Shown: in pieces, positions 48 to 12,108 of the stretch
Layout of the letters: each line of letters begins with the position of its first letter
How positions within the stretch are numbered: position 1 is the first letter of the stretch
Origin: a virus
DNA length: 12,502 nt
Strand: one strand, 5' to 3'
UHGV virus genome: UHGV-1789726
Notes under the pieces: model-generated
What the model was told of the DNA's origin: nothing
Database searches by the model: none
The model's input: the letters and a program-made list of their open reading frames with translations, nothing else
Made by a program: the position numbers and the translations under genes

Positions 48-81
48 CCAGCGCCTTTGTCAATCAATGGTGGCTCAGGCG

Positions 82-174
82 GGGGCTTCTTCGGAAGCGC
101 CGGTATCCTTCAGAGCCGGTTACGCCAACCCTGTCTGGGCTACCACCAGCGAAATTGGCGTTTCCGGTGGTAGC
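82..174 (+). promoter_or_regulatory. Structured 5' leader: UUCG-tetraloop hairpin (stem 85-89/94-98) and a 9-bp-stem hairpin (139-147/166-174)
   Basis: GCTTC-TTCG-GAAGC at 85-98; GCTACCACC (139-147) pairs with GGTGGTAGC (166-174) across an 18-nt loop. The 180-aa ORF called across this region has no RBS and low-complexity translation. Confidence 0.3.
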
Positions 175-2585: not shown

Positions 2586-5328
2586 TCTTATCCGTCAGGT
2601 TATCAGTGCGTCTGAAAACAACTGGCCTCATGTGCTGGGCTGCCTGAACATAAATGTCCCTGACTCTCCGCGCCGTCATGCTCCCTGCCCTGCATGTGGG
2701 GGCAAAGATCGATTCCGGTTCGATGACAACGGGCGCGGTAGCTTCATCTGTAATCAGTGCGGCGCTGGTGATGGGCTGGATTTAATTAAACGCGTAAATA
2801 ACTGCGACACAACAGAGGCGGCGCTTCTTGCCGCTGATGTTCTGGGTATTGATTACCGGACAACGGAAACACCAGAAGCCACCAGCCAGAAACGGGAACA
2901 ACTGGAAACCGAGCGCCAGCGACGCGAACAGGAGCGCCTGAAAAGGGCAGAGAAGGACGAACAACAAAGACGGGATACGTTTTCCCGTCAGTTTGATGAC
3001 ATGCGCAGAAAGGCTGTAAACGGCAAATCTGATTATCTGGTTGCGAAAGGGGTAGGTGATTTTACATTCCCCGTGTTGCCCGATGGATCTCTGTTGCTGG
3101 CGCTGGTGGATAAATCCGGCGCAGTAACAGCAGCACAGACTATTACCTCACATGGTGAAAAAAGACTCCTGACAGGTTCAGCAAAGCGAGGGGCATATCA
3201 CGCCATAAACGCACCAGAAACAACACAGAGCATCTTAATCGCAGAAGGGCTGGCAACGGCATTATCTGCCCATTTAATGCGTCCAGAGGCGCTGACAGTG
3301 GCGGCGATTGATGCCGGGAACCTGTTATATGTCGCCCAGGTACTGCGGGATAAATTTCCTTCAGCACAAATCATCATTGCTGCGGATAACGACCACAGCG
3401 AAGGAAGACAAAACACGGGGAGAATAGCAGCAGAAAAAGCAGCTTTATCTGTTTCTGGATGGGTGGCATTACCCCCGACAGATCACAAAGCAGACTGGAA
3501 TGATTACCACCAAAAACACGGCATTAAATGCGCCACAGAAGCGTTCAATAAGTCAATGTACCAACCACAGGGTAATGGCGTGAAACAGGAGCCACAGACC
3601 ATTGAGGGAAGCGATTTTAAGGTTATGGATACCGATCCACTGAAACCAAGAATAGAAAGCCGCGAGGATGGTATTTATTGGGTATCTCCGAGAGCTGACA
3701 GCCAGAGTGGAGAAATCATCAATAACGAAAGCTGGTTATGTTCTCCGTTAAGCGTTATCGGTACTGGCAGAGACGATAAAGACCAGTATCTCATTCTTCG
3801 CTGGCTGTCGTTTGGTTCTGAAACGCCGACAACCGCTGCCATTCCACTGGCTGATATTGGTGAACGTGAAGGATGGCGCACACTTAAAGCTGGTGGGGTA
3901 AATGTCACGACCAAAAGCAGCCTCAGAGCAATACTGGCAGACTGGCTACAACGCAGTGGCTCTCGTGAATTGTGGCGTGTTGCTCATGCCACTGGCTGGC
4001 AATGCGGAGCGTACATCATGCCTGATGGGGAAATCATCGGAACACCTGAAAATCCTGTGCTGTTCAGCGGGAGAAGCTCAGCCGCAGCCGGATATACCGT
4101 CTCAGGGAGCGCGAAAAGCTGGCGTGATAACGTGGCGCGTCTGGCCTTTGGTAACTATTCAATGATGACCGGGATCGGCGCAGCACTGGCAGCGCCATTG
4201 ATTGGGCTGGTGGGCGCTGACGGGTTCGGCATTCATTTCTATGAGCAGTCGAGCGCAGGTAAGACCACCACGGCAAACGTGGCGAGCAGCTTATACGGCA
4301 ACCCTGATTTACTGCGGCTGACGTGGTACGGAACCGCGCTGGGGCTGGCAAATGAGGCCGCCGCCCACAATGACGGACTAATGCCGCTTGATGAAGTTGG
4401 TCAGGGCGCTGATCCTGTCAGCGTTTCACAGTCTGCCTATGCGTTATTTAACGGTGTAGGGAAACTGCAAGGCGCTAAAGATGGTGGAAACCGGGATCTA
4501 AAACGCTGGCGTACAGTGGCAATCAGCACCGGAGAAATGGATTTAGAAACATTTATCGCTACTTCCGGGCGAAAAACCAAAGCCGGGCAACTGGTGCGAC
4601 TGCTGAATATTCCGTTGAGTAAAGCAGTACGCTTTCACGATTACCAGAACGGAAAACAGCACGCAGACGCACTGAAAGACGCTTACCAGCATCACCACGG
4701 CGCGTCCGGGCGTGAGTGGATTAAATGGCTGGCAGACCACCAGCAACAGGCTATTAAAACCGTTCGTGACTGCGAAAGCAGATGGAGAAGCCTGATCCCA
4801 TCCGATTATGGTGAGCAGGTTCACCGTGTAGCCGCGCGATTTGCCATTCTGGAGGCCGCATTGTTGTTAGGCGAGGTTGTAACAGGCTGGGATGCTCAGA
4901 CATGCCGTGATGCGATACAGCACAGCTATAACGCATGGTTGCGCGAGTTCGGCACAGGTAACAAAGAGCATCAGCAGATTATTGAACAAACGGAGGCATT
5001 TCTTAATGCCTATGGGCTTAGCCGTTTTGCACCATTTCCATACAGCCCGGCAGATTTGCCCATCAAAGATTTAGCCGGATACCGTCAGCGTGGAGAACAT
5101 GACGAAAGCCCAATGATTTTCTACACATTCCCGGCCACATTTGAAAAGGAGATCGCATGTGGTTTCAACGCAAAACAGTTTGCTGAAGTGTTGAAAAAAG
5201 CCGGGATGCTAACCCCACCAAACAGCGGTCGTGGATACCAAAGAAAATCACCACGTATTCAGGGACGACAAATAAACGTTTATGTACTCAATTACCAGCC
5301 AGGAGATTACAACTCATCTGAAGAATGA
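2572..5328 (+). CDS. Primase-helicase (P4 alpha / PICI Pri-Rep type): N-terminal zinc ribbon, TOPRIM, C-terminal P-loop domain; about 918 aa
   Basis: CPACGG...CNQCG zinc ribbon (nt ~2686-2766); TOPRIM signature with IAEG Glu (nt ~3244) and AADND (nt ~3385); SSAGKTT P-loop (nt ~4258). ATG 2572 preferred over the track's GTG 2569. Confidence 0.9.
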   Translation: MRNIDLIRQVISASENNWPHVLGCLNINVPDSPRRHAPCPACGGKDRFRFDDNGRGSFICNQCGAGDGLDLIKRVNNCDTTEAALLAADVLGIDYRTTETPEATSQKREQLETERQRREQERLKRAEKDEQQRRDTFSRQFDDMRRKAVNGKSDYLVAKGVGDFTFPVLPDGSLLLALVDKSGAVTAAQTITSHGEKRLLTGSAKRGAYHAINAPETTQSILIAEGLATALSAHLMRPEALTVAAIDAGNLLYVAQVLRDKFPSAQIIIAADNDHSEGRQNTGRIAAEKAALSVSGWVALPPTDHKADWNDYHQKHGIKCATEAFNKSMYQPQGNGVKQEPQTIEGSDFKVMDTDPLKPRIESREDGIYWVSPRADSQSGEIINNESWLCSPLSVIGTGRDDKDQYLILRWLSFGSETPTTAAIPLADIGEREGWRTLKAGGVNVTTKSSLRAILADWLQRSGSRELWRVAHATGWQCGAYIMPDGEIIGTPENPVLFSGRSSAAAGYTVSGSAKSWRDNVARLAFGNYSMMTGIGAALAAPLIGLVGADGFGIHFYEQSSAGKTTTANVASSLYGNPDLLRLTWYGTALGLANEAAAHNDGLMPLDEVGQGADPVSVSQSAYALFNGVGKLQGAKDGGNRDLKRWRTVAISTGEMDLETFIATSGRKTKAGQLVRLLNIPLSKAVRFHDYQNGKQHADALKDAYQHHHGASGREWIKWLADHQQQAIKTVRDCESRWRSLIPSDYGEQVHRVAARFAILEAALLLGEVVTGWDAQTCRDAIQHSYNAWLREFGTGNKEHQQIIEQTEAFLNAYGLSRFAPFPYSPADLPIKDLAGYRQRGEHDESPMIFYTFPATFEKEIACGFNAKQFAEVLKKAGMLTPPNSGRGYQRKSPRIQGRQINVYVLNYQPGDYNSSEE

Positions 5329-5353: not shown

Positions 5354-5464
5354 GTTGGTTCAGTTGGTTCAGTTGGTTCAATTTGTAAAGAGTATTGTTT
5401 TATAAGGATTTTATTCTTTTTATTGAACCAACACTGAACCAACAACACGGTATTTTGAACCAAC
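5354..5464. repeat. Iteron cluster / candidate origin: 3 tandem GTTGGTTCA, a 43-bp AT-rich spacer, then 3 inverted copies TGAACCAAC
   Basis: Direct copies at 5354-5362, 5363-5371, 5372-5380; AT-rich 5381-5423; inverted copies at 5424-5432, 5435-5443, 5456-5464 (11 bp and 21 bp centre-to-centre). Sits immediately 3' of the primase gene. Confidence 0.65.
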
Positions 5465-5784
5465 ACAATGTGACTGAATTGATGCGCACAACACCTGGCT
5501 GGCATCAGAGAGTGTTTTACGAGACTTTCGTAAAATCCTGTGTACAAGGGCGTGACGTTTTTGAAAGTGAGCACTACGAAATTTTCGTAGTTCAGAAAAC
5601 AGCCTCTGAGAAGTTGTTATGCCTGTTCAGCAAACCATCCGCATAGCTGATCGCGAATCAAATTACCAATGGAGCCAGAAGCAAGGGCAGAACTGAAAAG
5701 CGCCTGCCGTGAAGAGTAATGCGACACCATAAATATAGTTTTTAGAGTCCATAAAAAACCTGTCAAAACCTGACACACAGAACG

Positions 5785-5817
5785 ATGCCACCAGCTACTG
5801 AGCGGTGGCATTTTTTT
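5785..5817 (+). terminator. Rho-independent terminator
   Basis: 8-bp stem ATGCCACC (5785-5792) / GGTGGCAT (5804-5811) with an 11-nt loop, followed by a T7 run (5811-5817). Confidence 0.6.
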
Positions 5818-5912
5818 GTGCTATTTGTTTCATATTTTGCAATTACGATGATGAATATTGCGATTTGTGAAACTATAATAACTGTTGTTTTATACAGTTC
5901 TAAGGGGGCGTT

Positions 5913-6074
5913 ATGGCTATTTCAGTAAAGCCGGTATTGATAAGTGAGAAGCAAATGGAAGCGATAAAGAAAATTCAGGAAGAGCAGCGTAAAAAATCAG
6001 GAATTGGAGTAGCGCCAACTCTGCATGAAATTGCACGAGGGTTAATAGATAAGGCGCTGGCAGGCTGTATGTGA
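5913..6074 (+). CDS. Small ORF, 53 aa, absent from the ORF track; possible ribbon-helix-helix (Arc/MetJ-like) regulator
   Basis: AAGGGGG at 5902-5908, 4 nt before ATG 5913; stop TGA 6072-6074. Translation MAISVKPVLISEKQMEAIKKIQEEQRKKSGIGVAPTLHEIARGLIDKALAGCM has a strand-helix-helix layout. Fold assignment is inference. Confidence 0.45.
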   Translation: MAISVKPVLISEKQMEAIKKIQEEQRKKSGIGVAPTLHEIARGLIDKALAGCM

Positions 6075-6090
6075 AAATGGATGGCATCGC

Positions 6091-6552
6091 ATGGAACTAA
6101 AATTTATTGATAACCCTGTGCGATTACAGGCCTTTCTTAACGAGCCAGGCAATACCGAAAATATTGTTGAGCCGGGGCACACGTACTACATCAAGCCTGA
6201 TGCGGTATATCTCGGCATCTACGAAGGATTAGTGCTGGCTGGCGTTCATGAAGTGCGTAACTTCTGGCATAGCGTTGTTGAATGCCATGCGGTGTACGAC
6301 CCCGGATTCCGTGGTGAATATGCACTGCAAGGACATCGATTATTCTGCAAATGGCTTCTCGAAAACTCACCATTCCTTAACAGCATCACTATGGTTCCTG
6401 ACACCACGAAATACGGACGGGCAATTATCCGTTTGCTTGGCGCTACCCGTGTTGGTCACCTTGATGATGCTTATATCAGATGTGGTAAACCCGTCGGCGT
6501 AACGCTTTATCAGTTAACTCGGCAACAATATAAGGAATTCAGCGAATGTTAA
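6091..6552 (+). CDS. Hypothetical protein, 153 aa; first gene of the four-gene cassette
   Basis: Long ORF, non-repetitive sequence; stop overlaps next start (6546). Confidence 0.7.
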   Translation: MELKFIDNPVRLQAFLNEPGNTENIVEPGHTYYIKPDAVYLGIYEGLVLAGVHEVRNFWHSVVECHAVYDPGFRGEYALQGHRLFCKWLLENSPFLNSITMVPDTTKYGRAIIRLLGATRVGHLDDAYIRCGKPVGVTLYQLTRQQYKEFSEC

Positions 6553-7223
6553 TTACCCATATAGCTCATAAACATCTCAATCGTGCCGTATACGAAAAAG
6601 GCGGTGATGGTGGTGCCTCTAAAGCTCAGGCGAAGGCCCAGCAGCAGGCAATTGATTTGCAGCGCGAGCAGTGGAATACGGTGATGAATAATCTCAAGCC
6701 GTATGCAGAAGTCGGATTGCCTGCTTTACAACAACTACAAGGACTGATGACTCTGGAAGGGCAGAATAAAGCCGCGAATGATTTCTTTGGTTCTGGTTTA
6801 TATAAAACACAGGCAGATCAGGCCCGTTATCAGAACCTTGTCTCAGCAGAAGCTACCGGGGGGCTTGGCTCAACAGCTACCAGTAACCAGTTATCTTCCA
6901 TTGCGCCCATGCTTTATAACAATTGGCTTAGTGGGCAAATGCAAAATTATGGAAACCTGCTAAATGTCGGGATGAATGCGGCATCAGGGCAGGCAACGGC
7001 AGGGCAAAACTACGCCAATAATACCGGACAACTCTTGCAGGGGCTTGGCGCTATTCGTGCAGGTCAGGCGCAGCAGCCATCCAGTCTTGCGCGTGGTATT
7101 GGTGGGGCAGCATCAGGCGCTTTAGCGGGTGCGCAACTTGGTTCCGTTGTTCCTGGAATAGGAACTGCGGCCGGCGCTATTGGTGGTGGGCTTATTGGTC
7201 TTGTTGGGGGGCTTGGATTCTAA
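6546..7223 (+). CDS. Q/N/A/G-rich protein, 225 aa, with C-terminal glycine-zipper hydrophobic segment; internal-virion/ejection-protein-like
   Basis: AAGGAA 9 nt before ATG 6546. C-terminus GIGGAASGALAGAQLGSVVPGIGTAAGAIGGGLIGLVGGLGF (nt ~7083-7220). Stop overlaps next start (TAATG). Confidence 0.75.
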   Translation: MLITHIAHKHLNRAVYEKGGDGGASKAQAKAQQQAIDLQREQWNTVMNNLKPYAEVGLPALQQLQGLMTLEGQNKAANDFFGSGLYKTQADQARYQNLVSAEATGGLGSTATSNQLSSIAPMLYNNWLSGQMQNYGNLLNVGMNAASGQATAGQNYANNTGQLLQGLGAIRAGQAQQPSSLARGIGGAASGALAGAQLGSVVPGIGTAAGAIGGGLIGLVGGLGF

Positions 7224-8542
7224 TGGCGACATGGCAACTTGGCGGGCTGCCTAGCATGGCACCGCAAAATGATAATGCTCCTCGTTCTTCCGTTCCTCAG
7301 CCTGTGCAGTATCAGCAGCAGCCAAACGTAGGTTTAATGGCGCTACAGGGGCTAAGAGGCGTTGCTGAGATTAATCAGCAGGCGCAAATTTCCCAGCAGC
7401 TAAAAGAATATCAGGCACGGTTGGGTAGTGCGGTAGCTAATAATGATCGTGTTGGCGTGCAGAAGTTAATGGCCCAGTATCCCCAGTTTATGGCTGATTC
7501 TCAAAAACAGATGGGATTCATTGATGCTGAGCAAAATCGGCAGACCGCTGACGCTGCCATGAATCTGCGTCTTGCGTCACAAACTGGAGATCCACTGACC
7601 ATGCAGAAGGCCATTCAGCAGGCAAATCCAGTATTACAGCGATTTGGTCTTCCTGCTGAAGAGGTTTATCAGTCTTGGCAGAATGACCCACAGGAATTCA
7701 ACAGAATCACTGACCTCATCCACCTCCATGCTGATCCAAATAGTTACTTTAGTGTTCAAGAGAAGCAGCAAGGGCAGAGTATTGCACAGCAGAACGCAGA
7801 TACATCTGCATATAATGCTCAGGTTAATGCGGAGCAGGGTAATCGGCGGCTCGATATGGAGCAGTTCAAAGTCCTATCCGATAACCAACTACGCACGAGA
7901 GAAATGGTTCTGAAAGCACGACTTGGACGTGCTCAAAATGACATCGAGAGAGACAAGCTCAATGCTGAACTGAGCAAGGTACAGCAGGCGAAAGTGGAGA
8001 AGATGAACGATAAAATTAATACTGTTGCAGGTAATATCGACTCCTTGAACTCTGCGCTTGAAGTGGGTCATGAACTGGCGGGAATTGTAGGGAAACATCC
8101 TTCGGCCGTTACCCGTTCGCAGAACTATAACCCCCTGACGCTGGGGTTTGGATTCCTCCCTGATGTAGCAGAAGACACACGAAGCCTACGCGCCAAAGCT
8201 GATGAATACAACCTAAAGGTTATTCTGCCTAGCCTAAAAGGTACTTTTGGCTCTAACCCAACCGAAGGGGAAAGGGCTGCCCTTATGCAATCTCAAAATG
8301 GCATTAAGTCAGCAACCAGCAATGAGGCATTTTTGCGAGAGTTGAATAAAGCGCAGGACGTAATTATTCGAATGCAGAAACGACAGATTGCCGGGCTCGG
8401 TATTCCTGTAACCAAATCTAAGGACGAAGAAACTGATACCAAAATGCTGTTGCAGGATCCTTCACTGGTTAAGGATTATGTGACCGCACATGGCTATCTG
8501 CCGGAAAGTTACTATCAGGCAAAACTTAAGGGATGGCAATGA
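7223..8542 (+). CDS. Gln-rich, predicted helical/coiled-coil protein, 439 aa; internal-virion/ejection-protein-like
   Basis: Long ORF coupled at both ends; Q/A/N-rich composition. Confidence 0.8.
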   Translation: MATWQLGGLPSMAPQNDNAPRSSVPQPVQYQQQPNVGLMALQGLRGVAEINQQAQISQQLKEYQARLGSAVANNDRVGVQKLMAQYPQFMADSQKQMGFIDAEQNRQTADAAMNLRLASQTGDPLTMQKAIQQANPVLQRFGLPAEEVYQSWQNDPQEFNRITDLIHLHADPNSYFSVQEKQQGQSIAQQNADTSAYNAQVNAEQGNRRLDMEQFKVLSDNQLRTREMVLKARLGRAQNDIERDKLNAELSKVQQAKVEKMNDKINTVAGNIDSLNSALEVGHELAGIVGKHPSAVTRSQNYNPLTLGFGFLPDVAEDTRSLRAKADEYNLKVILPSLKGTFGSNPTEGERAALMQSQNGIKSATSNEAFLRELNKAQDVIIRMQKRQIAGLGIPVTKSKDEETDTKMLLQDPSLVKDYVTAHGYLPESYYQAKLKGWQ

Positions 8543-11259
8543 TGGCACAACTGACAGAAAAACAGAAAGCCTATTCCCGTCATCTCGATGAAAAATATGG
8601 TTTCCCATCAGGGACGATGGAAACATTAGTTGGCAATGAATCTAGTGGTAACGGAAGTGCCGAGTCACCGAAAGGAGCTAGAGGATTTGCTCAACTGATG
8701 CCCTCAGTAATGAGTGATGCTGGTTATCGTGGAACAGATCCGCGCTCACTGCCATTTGAAAAGCAAATGGATATCGCAGCAAACCATCTCAATAAAGGAA
8801 TGAAGCGATTTGGTGATATAGGTATGGCATTGGCTGGGTATAATTCTGGCTATGCTCGTATTAATGCCGTAAGAAACGGTAAATCTACACTGCCAGATGA
8901 AACGGCTAATTACGTAAGTAAATTTGCAGATGCCGGAATAATCCCTGATGACAGTGAAATCTTGCAGTTTGCACAAACCAGTCAACATCGCAATCTTCAG
9001 CAGCCTGACTACTCAGAGCTTGATAAAGAAATCTCTCAGGTGGGAGATATTTCTGCATGGGAAGCAAAACGTCAGCAATTTAAGAACATAGAAGCAGGAC
9101 TACCAACAGCCAGTTCATGGGAGCAGAAAAGAGCTCAGTTTCTCGCCGATGAAAATGCCGGGGAACCGCAGCAGCAAGTAGCCAAGTCTAACCTTAATCC
9201 TGAGATGGAATATCTTTCGCCAGGACTGAAAGCTGCGCCAGAGCAGATGGCCAGAGGGATTGCTAATATACCGTTTGATGTAATGGACGCAGGCGTGGGG
9301 GTAGTCAATGCGGCGCAATCAGCCGGAGCATGGGCAGCTCAGAAGCTTGGTGTGGGTGATGGCACATACACGCCCATATCACCTGTCTTTCGCCCAGTAG
9401 ACCAACCTACAGATCCATACGCGCAGGCTGGTGAGCAGCTAGCACCTTACCTTATTACAGGATTAGGTGCAGGAAAGGCAGCTACCGCAGCTTCTTCAGT
9501 TGCCAACGCTCCACGTGCTGAACGTGCGGCCACAAAGGTGGCTAGTATGTTGGCAGAAAACCTGCCAGGTACATTGGTGAACGCCCAAAAGAACGGGCAG
9601 ATCAGCCCAGAAGACCTAGCAAAAGAGACAGGTATTGGCCTAGCAGGATCGCTAGGAGCACGCGCTTTAATAAAGAGCGGACAGACAGCCAGTGACGTAA
9701 TGCGAGATGTATTGCGGAGTAATACAAATCAATCAGGCCATGTGTTAGGGGCAGCAAATACTCTGGAAACCGCCAATGATGTATCGAAAGCAGCGCGTTC
9801 TGCCGTAGGCCGAGAGCATATCGCATCGCAGGCATCAAACGTCAGAGATGATGTCGCTAAGGCGGCGAAAATCACTGGTATTAATATCAACACCCTGACG
9901 CCTGGAATGCGCTCAGGTAGTCGTGGAATTGCCCAAGCAGAAGGTGTTCTGGCATCAACTCCTGGGAATGTTCAGGATGCTCACCTTACGGCCTTCAATG
10001 AAATATCCTCAAAGTTGAATAAGCAGTTGTCTGATTTCGGTGCTGAGTCTGGAAGCGCATCAGAAAAAAGCGCAGCAATTAAAGAGCGCATCATCGCGAG
10101 CCTCAGTGATATGAAAACAGCAGAGAATATGGCATGGGCAGAACTGCGAAGCACGATGCCACGCGAAAGGATGAAAATGAGTAATGGGATGGCTGTCGTC
10201 CAAGCAGAAAAAGCAGCCAATGTTCCACTCAGCCCGGAGATGAAACAGTTTCAGGCTGCCAACAACCAAGGTGGCGGCATAACCTTCGACGGGATGAAGG
10301 CATGGCGTGCTAAGTTTGCTGATGCTGAACAAGCAAACACCCGGGCAGGTAAGGCCAATGCCGCCCGGATTGCCGGAGAAATGCGCAGAGCTATCACTGA
10401 TGACATGCGCATCATGGCTGAAAAAGGAAACTTCCTCACAGAATGGCAGAAAGCTAACGATCTCTCTAAAAGTTACATTATCGCCAAACAAAATGCCGAA
10501 TCTGTTTTTGGTCGAGATCTCGCATCAGACGCTATGGTAAGAAAAGGTGCCGATACGCTTAAGGCATCCGCAAACACTGGAACTGGAGCTTTTCACCGTC
10601 TTATCTCCGCGCTGCCGGAAGCAGAACGCCAACCAGCAATAGCATCTATTCTTCAGCATGCTGTGGCGCAGGGAGAGAAGGGAGGAATCGGTGAAGAGTC
10701 TGGTATCCAGTATTTTGCCAAGCTCATGACCCAGCAGAATGTAAACGCCATCAGTCGTCATGCGCCAGATCTCGGTAGAATGATGAAAGAGTTCGGTGTA
10801 CTCGCTAAAGCCAGCACCAGACCGCAGCGATACGTAGAGCGCACGGGAAGAACAACTGAGGCTCTCAAAACGCTCGATTCAGGCCTTCCAAAGATCGTCG
10901 GCGTGATTATGAACGGAGTTCAACAGTCAGGTGCGATCGCTGGAGGCTTTGGCGGTGGTGTAATTGGTTCGATTAGTGGTTTGGTTGCTGGTGGCGCGCT
11001 GAGAAATACTGTGGCTAAGATTGGGGCGACAAGAAGTGGTAGGTATGCGATAGAGAAAGCCGTTCAGGAAGCTACAAAAGCAGTGCGCGCAGGGGCATCA
11101 CCAGCAGCGATCGCCGCAGCAGAGAAACGATTTTCGGCCAATAAAATTGCCATGAAAGCAATTCGTGATGCCGTTGGGGCTGAAGAATTCGTGAAACTGA
11201 CAAGGGCCGGGATTGTAGCTACCCTCAGTGGCATGAAAGATGTTAGCGAATGGGAATAG
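8533..11259 (+). CDS. Large protein, 908 aa, with N-terminal family-1 lytic transglycosylase (SLT) motif set and a glycine-zipper segment near the C-terminus
   Basis: Motifs E-S (GNESSGN, nt ~8638), G-x-x-Q (GARGFAQLMP, nt ~8692), A-Y-N-x-G (ALAGYNSGYA, nt ~8839); GAIAGGFGGGVIGSISGLVAGGA at nt ~10900-11000. Start may be 8533, 8539 or 8542; AAGGGA at 8526-8531 favours 8539. Confidence 0.85.
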   Translation: MAMMAQLTEKQKAYSRHLDEKYGFPSGTMETLVGNESSGNGSAESPKGARGFAQLMPSVMSDAGYRGTDPRSLPFEKQMDIAANHLNKGMKRFGDIGMALAGYNSGYARINAVRNGKSTLPDETANYVSKFADAGIIPDDSEILQFAQTSQHRNLQQPDYSELDKEISQVGDISAWEAKRQQFKNIEAGLPTASSWEQKRAQFLADENAGEPQQQVAKSNLNPEMEYLSPGLKAAPEQMARGIANIPFDVMDAGVGVVNAAQSAGAWAAQKLGVGDGTYTPISPVFRPVDQPTDPYAQAGEQLAPYLITGLGAGKAATAASSVANAPRAERAATKVASMLAENLPGTLVNAQKNGQISPEDLAKETGIGLAGSLGARALIKSGQTASDVMRDVLRSNTNQSGHVLGAANTLETANDVSKAARSAVGREHIASQASNVRDDVAKAAKITGININTLTPGMRSGSRGIAQAEGVLASTPGNVQDAHLTAFNEISSKLNKQLSDFGAESGSASEKSAAIKERIIASLSDMKTAENMAWAELRSTMPRERMKMSNGMAVVQAEKAANVPLSPEMKQFQAANNQGGGITFDGMKAWRAKFADAEQANTRAGKANAARIAGEMRRAITDDMRIMAEKGNFLTEWQKANDLSKSYIIAKQNAESVFGRDLASDAMVRKGADTLKASANTGTGAFHRLISALPEAERQPAIASILQHAVAQGEKGGIGEESGIQYFAKLMTQQNVNAISRHAPDLGRMMKEFGVLAKASTRPQRYVERTGRTTEALKTLDSGLPKIVGVIMNGVQQSGAIAGGFGGGVIGSISGLVAGGALRNTVAKIGATRSGRYAIEKAVQEATKAVRAGASPAAIAAAEKRFSANKIAMKAIRDAVGAEEFVKLTRAGIVATLSGMKDVSEWE

Positions 11260-11409: not shown

Positions 11410-12108
11410 ATGATTAAAAATCTTCTTTTAATATTATCCCTGTCATTATTGGCTGGATGCGTACAAAAACCGTTAGTAACGGTCAATGCTTTATCTTCCG
11501 GGCAATCTGTCGGTAAGAAGTTCTTGATCATCCCCGCAAGCCAAGAACTTTGGAACACCAAACAGATTGAATACACTCAAATAGCTACGGTAGTAGCCGC
11601 CAGTTTATCAAGCCAAGGATATACACAAGTTAAAGATGAAAAATTGGCTGACCAGGTAATTCTCTTGAACTTTTTGAGAAGCGGGGCCATTTCAAATACT
11701 CGTAATGTAACCATCCCAATATACGGGCAAACTGGTGTGAGCTCAGCAACAACGTACGGAAACTCGAACACCACGTTCAATAGTTATGGTGGTGGCTACG
11801 GTACAGCTAATACCACTGGAACGGCAACAACAGTTTATACGCCTACTTATGGAATTACTGGCGCGTATAACACAACTGTGACGGACACGTTCTACGGCGC
11901 AGGGGTGATACTCCAGTCGTTTGATGCCAAGGCTTATCTCAATAATAGGCAGATTAATATGTTATGGAAAGTTGGTAGCTCAGTCGTCTCGCAACAGTCT
12001 GATGGAATTGCTGATTACAAGGGGTTGGCGAGAATAGCCGCTAGCTATGCCGGGAAAAATACAGAAGGTGATATAACTTTTAATGTTGACCCTAAAGCAC
12101 CAAATTAA
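11410..12108 (+). CDS. Putative lipoprotein, 232 aa, with Thr/Gly/Tyr/Asn-rich central region
   Basis: AGGTGA 7 nt before ATG 11410; signal peptide plus lipobox MIKNLLLILSLSLLAGC. Region looks more AT-rich than the rest by eye. Confidence 0.8.
   Translation: MIKNLLLILSLSLLAGCVQKPLVTVNALSSGQSVGKKFLIIPASQELWNTKQIEYTQIATVVAASLSSQGYTQVKDEKLADQVILLNFLRSGAISNTRNVTIPIYGQTGVSSATTYGNSNTTFNSYGGGYGTANTTGTATTVYTPTYGITGAYNTTVTDTFYGAGVILQSFDAKAYLNNRQINMLWKVGSSVVSQQSDGIADYKGLARIAASYAGKNTEGDITFNVDPKAPN

Follow-up and report, generated by a model that had tools for sequence, protein, structure and literature searches.

What controls the virion-protein genes in the Late zone of the DNA analysed here, and does the small open reading frame (ORF) at their head take part in that control? 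The DNA is a stretch of 12,502 nucleotides from the virus genome UHGV-1789726 (hereafter the window), and it is 98.8% identical over 12.3 kb to EcCIMP1, a satellite of the phage-inducible chromosomal island (PICI) type from E. coli MP1. The ORF has 53 codons and lies on the plus strand, from an ATG at 5913 to a TGA at 6072-6074. It is a real, conserved gene whose product has the predicted fold of a ribbon-helix-helix (RHH) protein, and its promoter carries two operator-like palindromes and a predicted LexA (SOS) box. The small gene sits at a probable control point that had not been described for this published satellite, and the evidence leans towards a negative autoregulator acting on an SOS-gated operon.

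EcCIMP1 was described as a PICI that is excised and transduced by the P22-like temperate phage Kapi1 after mitomycin C; only the alpA promoter was tested, and the small gene, its promoter, an RHH protein and LexA were not mentioned (PMC11773190). In Gram-negative PICIs, integration, Bro, replication and Late zones have been distinguished, with the Late zone lying downstream of the primase and the origin and housing captured helper late genes, and the small gene, its fold, the paired palindromes and the LexA box were not described in that account (PMC10111431). A full-text literature search for "ribbon-helix-helix" together with "phage satellite" returned no paper.

Conservation and distribution of the small gene

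The product of the ORF, MAISVKPVLISEKQMEAIKKIQEEQRKKSGIGVAPTLHEIARGLIDKALAGCM, is identical to the EcCIMP1 copy, and RefSeq lists it as the hypothetical protein WP_001018524.1, found in E. coli cq9 and E. coli MP1. An earlier reading of the window made from the sequence alone (the sequence-only reading) had called the ORF unannotated, which does not hold; the position (5913-6074) and length that it gave are borne out, and the interval between the stop codon and the ATG (6091) of the following 153-aa gene is 16 nt rather than 17. The Shine-Dalgarno (SD) sequence AAGGGGG, read from the plus strand at 5902-5908, agrees with the good ribosome binding site that had been claimed, and GGAGG or GGGGG stands at equal spacing before the start codon in all relatives examined.

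Across 18 diverged loci the sense frame was open in every one, with a pN of 0.185, a pS of 0.755 and a median dN/dS (ratio of nonsynonymous to synonymous substitution rates) of 0.105, and each of the remaining five frames had stops in at least 15 of the 18. Variable columns numbered 32, 17 and 45 at codon positions 1, 2 and 3, third positions thus varying most. With the sense frame open in 18 of 18 loci, the five others closed and dN/dS at about 0.1, the ORF is a genuine gene. Conservation in homologous loci had been set beforehand as a test of the ORF, and what was found is purifying selection and the same position at more than 70 loci in at least 12 enterobacterial genera. A 56-aa antisense ORF at 5917-6087 was considered as a gene and rejected, since it lacks conservation and stops interrupt the antisense frames in the relatives.

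Homologues with 64-98% identity were found in Escherichia, Citrobacter, Serratia, Klebsiella and Salmonella. Only 60 relatives, nearly all of 50-90 aa, came out of a profile search against 1.84 billion representative proteins; a genome scan added homologues in Leclercia, Cedecea, Raoultella, Rahnella, Pantoea, Erwinia, Lonsdalea, Pectobacterium and others, and IMG/VR contributed 50 further loci with the small gene. DNA matching window positions 5700-6200 is present in 499 of 5,426 complete E. coli genomes. In the satellites the small gene is always the first gene of the Late zone, after primase and origin, in agreement with the earlier suggestion that it heads the cassette operon.

Paired palindromes at the promoter

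The search for an operator palindrome in 5820-5910, proposed in the sequence-only reading as a check, yielded two conserved 17-bp palindromes beside the -10 hexamer, in addition to the LexA box. The distal one, O1 (GTTTCA-TATTT-TGCAAT, 5827-5843), and the proximal one, O2 (ATTGCG-ATTTG-TGAAAC, 5857-5873), share the consensus RTTKCA-N5-TGMAAY, and O2 reaches right up to the -10 hexamer, lying over the spacer and a portion of the -35 region. At least one such site with no more than two mismatches was found in all 64 distinct upstream regions (5.3 of 64 when shuffled), and paired sites 30 nt apart (31 once) in 54 of them (0.015 of 64 when shuffled), a comparison that overstates independence since the 64 regions come from related loci.

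An alignment of 20 upstream regions, from loci in 12 genera and anchored on the -10 hexamer, showed the same order of elements without indels: O1, 13 nt, O2, TATAAT, 2 nt and CTGT…. The two palindromes lie 30 bp apart from centre to centre, and their spacing to each other and to the -10 hexamer is fixed across genera. They persist in homologues with only about 35% identity whose flanks are fully diverged and unalignable. The pair occurs nowhere else in the island, is absent upstream of alpA, and accompanies the RHH gene across primase types (DUF927 or D5_N) and cargo types.

The half-site centres are 11 bp apart and the operators are separated by three helical turns, a geometry that would fit a dimer-of-dimers RHH repressor. 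O2 lies at about -13 to -29 and the centre of O1 near -51, and the placement of O2 over the spacer and the -35 region argues for repression. We infer that the 53-aa protein binds O1 and O2, and the position of the sites suggests that it represses its own promoter. The strand of the protein (VKPVLL) and the half-sites are both conserved, so there is little to co-vary; in L087, the most divergent locus, the palindromes differ, in an alignment that is not confident.

The -10 hexamer TATAAT (5874-5879, plus strand) was read directly, and almost every relative has it. The -35 in front of it, ATGAAT at 5851-5856, is weak, and for this reason a consensus scan of the window called no full sigma-70 promoter. 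Further upstream is an intrinsic terminator at 5785-5817 on the plus strand, with a stem ATGCCACC/GGTGGCAT at 5785-5811 followed by T7 (-17.9 kcal/mol), and many relatives have a comparable GC hairpin and T-run at the same position. Both features that had been noted in front of the ORF, the terminator and the TATAAT hexamer, are therefore present, and the terminator may insulate the operon from transcription of the replication zone. In non-E. coli clades (L002, L008, L019-L022, L028, L031-L032), a CGATC(R)AA motif is repeated (as in ttcgatcaaaacgatcaaat) ahead of O1, some 90-120 nt before the start codon, in place of the terminator of the window.

A predicted LexA box over the expected transcription start

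The LexA box AACTGTTGTTTTATACAGTT at 5880-5899 overlaps the expected transcription start and is the sole CTGT-N8-ACAG in the window, where 0.21 would be expected. It scores 20.4 bits with a position weight matrix, which equals the median of the E. coli reference boxes; the runner-up 20-mer in the window scores 9.5, and none of 200 shuffles reached 20.4. Thirty E. coli boxes went into the matrix, and one of them, that of dinD (AACTGTATATAAATACAGTT), was verified in L001. An identical box is carried by EcCIMP1, and LexA presumably binds 5880-5899 in vivo.

A box of good quality over the start, as in promoters of the LexA regulon, is present in the window and is not family-wide. Of 61 distinct promoters, 20 (Escherichia, Leclercia, Serratia, some Pantoea, Lonsdalea and others) have both arms at the N10 spacing with a varying spacer sequence, and such fixed arms around a varying spacer read as the signature of a protein-binding site; eight of the 61 have no CTG…CAG box. 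Because O1, O2 and the strand of the protein are the same in this clade and in a second clade in which the CTG…CAG spacing differs, the simplest account is that another factor, and not the RHH protein, reads the box; in the N10 clade this factor would be LexA. In the E. coli version LexA is probably the primary gate and the RHH protein a second layer, and SOS gating appears at best clade-specific. The CTG…CAG element was also considered as an RNA hairpin and set aside, as only 3-4 base pairs could be formed by eye.

Predicted fold of the 53-aa protein

The AlphaFold2 (AF2) prediction for the 53-aa protein reached a predicted local distance difference test (pLDDT) score of 85.6 with 13 sequences and 91.6 with 36 sequences, the five models of the latter run all scoring at least 87.5. 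The topology was identical in both runs (extended residues 1-11, helix 12-28, loop, helix 37-52), corresponding to a strand region at about residues 4-11, a helix A at 12-28 and a helix B at 37-52. In the predicted model, this beta-alpha-alpha fold, some 45 residues long, could be superposed on RHH domains of solved structure. A basic arm at the N-terminus and a hydrophobic strand ([KR]P[VI]LL) are retained in the family alignment; among 36 sequences, conservation is at least 90% for S29, G32 and P35, and position 36, directly before helix B, is mostly T or S. This is the usual site of phosphate-backbone contacts in RHH proteins, made by a conserved turn of the G-x-S/T/N type, with small or hydroxyl residues, where helix B begins. 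The closest structural match is the N-terminal domain of TraM (13% identity), and ParD, CopA and MazE-type antitoxins are also among the structural matches. Judged by these models, the 53-aa protein very probably has the RHH fold.

Sequence comparisons gave no family. Neither the protein nor any of the 36 family members matched Pfam at E-values up to 10, and the 53-aa protein had no match in PHROG, NCBIfam or PADLOC. Searches of the PDB by phmmer with the single sequence and with the 13- and 36-sequence profiles returned only chance matches to coiled-coil or designed proteins, and the Arc and Mnt proteins of Kapi1 could not be aligned with the 53-aa protein by BLASTP or hhalign (probability 0.1%). 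The strand-helix-helix layout of Arc/MetJ type proposed in the sequence-only reading is thus retained as an RHH by predicted structure, and its assignment to the Arc or MetJ families is not, there being no sequence profile match. The family would count as RHH by predicted fold only and stand outside Arc, MetJ, CopG and TraM, in none of which it was placed because the sequence matches or domains that define them were not found. By its sequence the protein appears to found a small family without a match to known families, of a kind of regulator that is well known.

Proposed mechanism

Taken as a whole chain, an Arc-like negative autoregulator of an SOS-gated Late-zone operon is, on balance, a somewhat probable account. 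In the uninduced cell, host LexA would occupy the SOS box over the transcription start, and transcription arriving from the replication zone would stop at the terminator. LexA would be removed upon DNA damage, the signal that induces the helper prophage Kapi1 too, and RNA polymerase would fire from the TATAAT promoter. The RHH protein, made first, would dimerise, and pairs of dimers would bind O1 and O2 on the same face of the DNA. Occupancy of O2 in the -35/spacer region would then close the promoter again, a negative autoregulation like that of Arc at P22 Pant, and the outcome would be a limited pulse of membrane- and murein-active cargo.

Several points weigh against this account. No sequence similarity to any RHH family or solved structure was seen even with the 36-sequence profile, and the fold call comes from a predicted monomer, in which the strand region is extended yet unpaired, whereas RHH proteins are obligate intertwined dimers whose two N-terminal strands pair into the antiparallel ribbon that reads the DNA. 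The strand has a nearly invariant proline and is mostly hydrophobic (VKPVLL), which is unusual for a base-reading RHH ribbon. More than half of the distinct relatives (33 of 61) have CTGTATAAATATCAG (CTG-N9-CAG), in which the arms are one base closer than in the N10 form and which reaches only 4-6 bits as a LexA site; the carriers are Klebsiella, Raoultella, Rahnella, Erwinia and others (L002, L008, L018-L024, L049-L078), and the element lies about 24 nt upstream of the start codon. The context of one distant homologue (L085, described below) hints at an ejection-protein role rather than transcription. Finally, the weak -35 is also compatible with an activator-dependent promoter.

The last point leads to the alternative that the same RHH protein and sites serve activation, the protein recruiting or stabilising RNA polymerase at a promoter without a usable -35 and switching the Late zone on by positive autoregulation. 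This is unlikely, as O2 abuts the -10 hexamer in a position that normally occludes sigma-70 rather than recruiting it, and classical activator sites centre near -41.5 or -61.5, not near the -51 of O1.

Cargo operon and mosaic junction

Downstream of the small gene, homologues of P22 virion proteins identified by Pfam and PHROG matches occupy 6091-11259 on the plus strand in the same operon: a gp14 homologue (DUF2824, the 153-aa gene, 6091-6552), a gp7 homologue (6546-7223), a gp20 homologue (7223-8542) and a gp16 homologue with an SLT transglycosylase domain (8533-11259). In P22, gp14, gp7, gp20 and gp16 act in ejection-protein assembly and DNA ejection. These cargo genes overlap or are tightly packed, and part of them is about 90% identical in DNA to the helper Kapi1. 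In many relatives the small gene and the next gene share an ATGA stop/start overlap where the window has its 16-nt gap, and because stop and start codons so often overlap, the small gene and the cargo are considered one operon. A candidate attenuator hairpin at 6115-6130 in the DUF2824 gene was rejected, as it is weak (-6.0 kcal/mol) and not kept in relatives with the same cargo.

Over about 75 loci, the genes that come first after the small gene belong to at least ten unrelated families, almost all of them virion DNA-delivery proteins. The cargo types are P22 gp14/7/20/16-type genes, a tape measure with a 108-aa partner, a tape measure with Dit and hub, a baseplate hub, and internal virion transglycosylases, and the cargo is apparently matched to the helper type. 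This bias towards DNA delivery and the common regulator module are absent from both published accounts (PMC10111431, PMC11773190).

The C-terminal tail of the small protein is variable. In the window it reads AGCM (6058-6071, plus strand) after an invariant …KAL, and over the same loci the 4-16 residues that follow …KAL co-vary almost one-to-one with the downstream cargo family. Because of this co-variation, a mosaic junction between regulator module and cargo is placed at the end of helix B; contact of the tail with a cargo protein is an alternative to an exchange junction.

At the left edge of the conserved mobile module, the 3' remnant of an upstream ORF (…RAELKSACREE*) was found at 5685-5719 on the plus strand. 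In L011, an E. coli satellite with another primase and origin, similarity to the window runs from about 5685 through the terminator, the promoter and the RHH core, and the counterpart of 5685-5719 is the end of an intact 93-aa gene. Between origin and terminator, positions 5438-5719 of the window contain no intact ORF, and only the last 12 codons or so match the end of this L011 gene, so the region looks like a recombination scar or gene remnant. The comparison suggests that terminator, operators, promoter and RHH core form a portable module, to which helper-matched DNA-delivery cassettes would be joined at the end of helix B.

Alternative roles of the small protein

The company of the small gene raises the alternative that the protein serves the DNA-delivery module itself, as a packaged or ejected DNA-binding factor or as a loader of ejection or tape-measure proteins, loosely like TraM, which couples DNA to a transfer machine. 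The almost exclusive association with delivery genes, the co-variation of the tail with cargo type and the best structural match to the TraM N-terminal domain are in its favour, as is a distant homologue of about 40% identity that lies amid internal virion protein genes in a podovirus-like structural cluster on one metagenomic contig (L085, 5890-6201). This cluster contains major head, tail tubular A/B and internal virion proteins and then a phrog_1044 transglycosylase protein; the homologue has no O1/O2-like sites, and in front of it stands a perfect inverted repeat of 11 bp, CTTTCCTCCTG…CAGGAGGAAAG, by which its SD would be sequestered. The phage-context homologue P0055 has no homologue in deposited phage genomes and no relatives in IMG/VR. 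However, the conserved paired palindromes at its own promoter suggest a promoter-bound function for the small protein, the window protein has no homologue among 50,697 deposited phage genomes, helper Kapi1 included, and Kapi1 builds a working ejection machinery without it. In addition, the small gene precedes unrelated cargo in the E. coli satellite L011, and a recombination junction is the simpler account of the tail-cargo co-variation. A delivery role is accordingly rated a little lower still than activation; it and a promoter role are not mutually exclusive.

It was also considered that O1 and O2 are bound by another factor, such as AlpA or a helper-phage or host protein, and that the RHH protein acts elsewhere, for example on helper promoters, aiding superinfection immunity. 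EcCIMP1 confers superinfection immunity against Kapi1 by a mechanism that was not explained, and AlpA is required for the PICI cycle (PMC11773190), and both points speak for this reading. Moreover, two weak motif matches 22 bp apart occur in Kapi1 (L034) at 27453-27491, upstream of the ejection genes, inside the tail-needle gene and some 460 bp before the gp14-like gene; one is a perfect palindrome (GTTTCA-GACCA-TGAAAC). These matches, however, have two mismatches each, lie in a coding region and are compatible with chance (estimated p about 0.13). AlpA, which autoregulates alpA, was rejected as the binder of O1/O2, as the motif pair is not found upstream of that gene. A helper-specific factor is unlikely, since the sites co-occur with the RHH gene in satellites of different helper types, and mimicry of the Q-dependent late promoter of the helper was discarded, as the Kapi1 region after Q looks lambda-PR'-like and unrelated. 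Overall, binding of O1/O2 by another factor is improbable.

That the small protein is an RHH antitoxin paired with the next gene as toxin is highly improbable despite the antitoxins among its structural matches, its small gene and the translational coupling to the next gene in many loci, because the varying downstream partner, drawn from at least ten unrelated families of mostly large virion proteins and thus no conserved cognate toxin, contradicts this reading, and the tail after helix B has only 4-16 residues and searches of PADLOC and toxin families gave no match.

The negative autoregulator may be extended to a bolder model, to which only a small probability is given. The terminator, the dual operator, the promoter and the RHH gene would together be a portable, self-limiting and AlpA-independent cassette adaptor, SOS-gated in some clades, whose 3' end (…ARGL-x-KAL) would act as the junction for swapping helper-matched modules (P22-type ejection, T7-type internal core, or tape measure with Dit and hub). 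In addition, an action of the RHH protein in trans on the helper might contribute to the superinfection immunity of EcCIMP1.

A separate observation concerns the 232-aa ORF at 11410-12108 (plus strand), after the gp16-like gene, for which only weak matches were found, namely of a lipoprotein-like N-terminus to Rz-like spanin families and marginal ones to TraT/DUF4136. It could be a surface-exclusion candidate of relevance to the EcCIMP1 superinfection immunity.

Satellite context and significance

All four zones of a Gram-negative PICI are present in the island: integration (int, AlpA), Bro (AntA, Ash), replication (TOPRIM/DUF927 primase, ending at 5328) and Late. The int, alpA and primase genes are co-oriented, an iteron origin follows the primase, the size is within about 10-20 kb, a full set of phage structural and lysis genes is absent, and mobilisation by a helper is indicated by the identity with EcCIMP1. 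The origin-like structure at 5354-5464 consists of three direct copies of GTTGGTTCA (5354-5382), an AT-rich stretch of about 40 nt and three inverted copies of TGAACCAAC (5424-5464), and this iteron/AT-rich/iteron layout is that of Gram-negative PICI origins (PMC6092414). Within the Ash-family gene of the Bro zone, a C4 antisense RNA (Rfam RF01695, 79.9 bits, E 9e-15), a P4 CI-type immunity RNA, was found at window positions 63-150 on the plus strand, a feature noted in other PICIs as well (PMC10111431).

EcCIMP1-like islands are common in E. coli, and published work on their switching covers only AlpA. The LexA box, the two palindromes and the predicted RHH protein provide a concrete and testable model for the promoter of the DNA-injection gene copies of the satellite. 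If the model is true, Late-zone expression in the E. coli clade would be tied directly to the SOS response of the host and not to a signal from the helper, and a handle on EcCIMP1 superinfection immunity would be gained. The class of protein is ordinary, and it is the promoter model that is relevant to Late-zone timing in Gram-negative PICIs. The protein also defines a small family that has no Pfam model; as a marker of where the Late zone begins in this satellite lineage, the family is useful for annotation.

Comparison with known systems

Operon I of staphylococcal pathogenicity islands (SaPIs) is reportedly controlled by LexA, and this gating together with Arc at Pant of P22 (immI) would be the closest working analogue of the promoter described here. 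The 53-aa protein shows no detectable similarity to Kapi1 Arc/Mnt or Pfam Arc, and two operators 30 bp apart are found here, compared with one at Pant. The element is a satellite and not a phage, a LexA box is added, and ejection-protein genes lie downstream instead of an antirepressor.

Structurally, the TraM N-terminal domain (pED208, F) is closest, at the low identity given above. TraM has about 120-127 aa, whereas the protein described here has 53 aa and ends after helix B, and the C-terminal tetramerisation and TraD-binding domain of TraM is absent. There is also no Pfam TraM match and no conjugation context.

As in SaPI operon I, a satellite operon downstream of the replication module is here predicted to be under an SOS box, and helper-related functions are predicted to be expressed when DNA damage induces the helper. 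The differences are a Gram-negative host, a DNA-delivery cargo rather than capsid-size and TerS functions, a satellite RHH protein as the second layer, and a predicted LexA box in only about a third of the family. Like the Late zone described for Gram-negative PICIs (PMC10111431), that of this satellite lineage starts downstream of primase and origin, and the small gene is placed exactly at its start.

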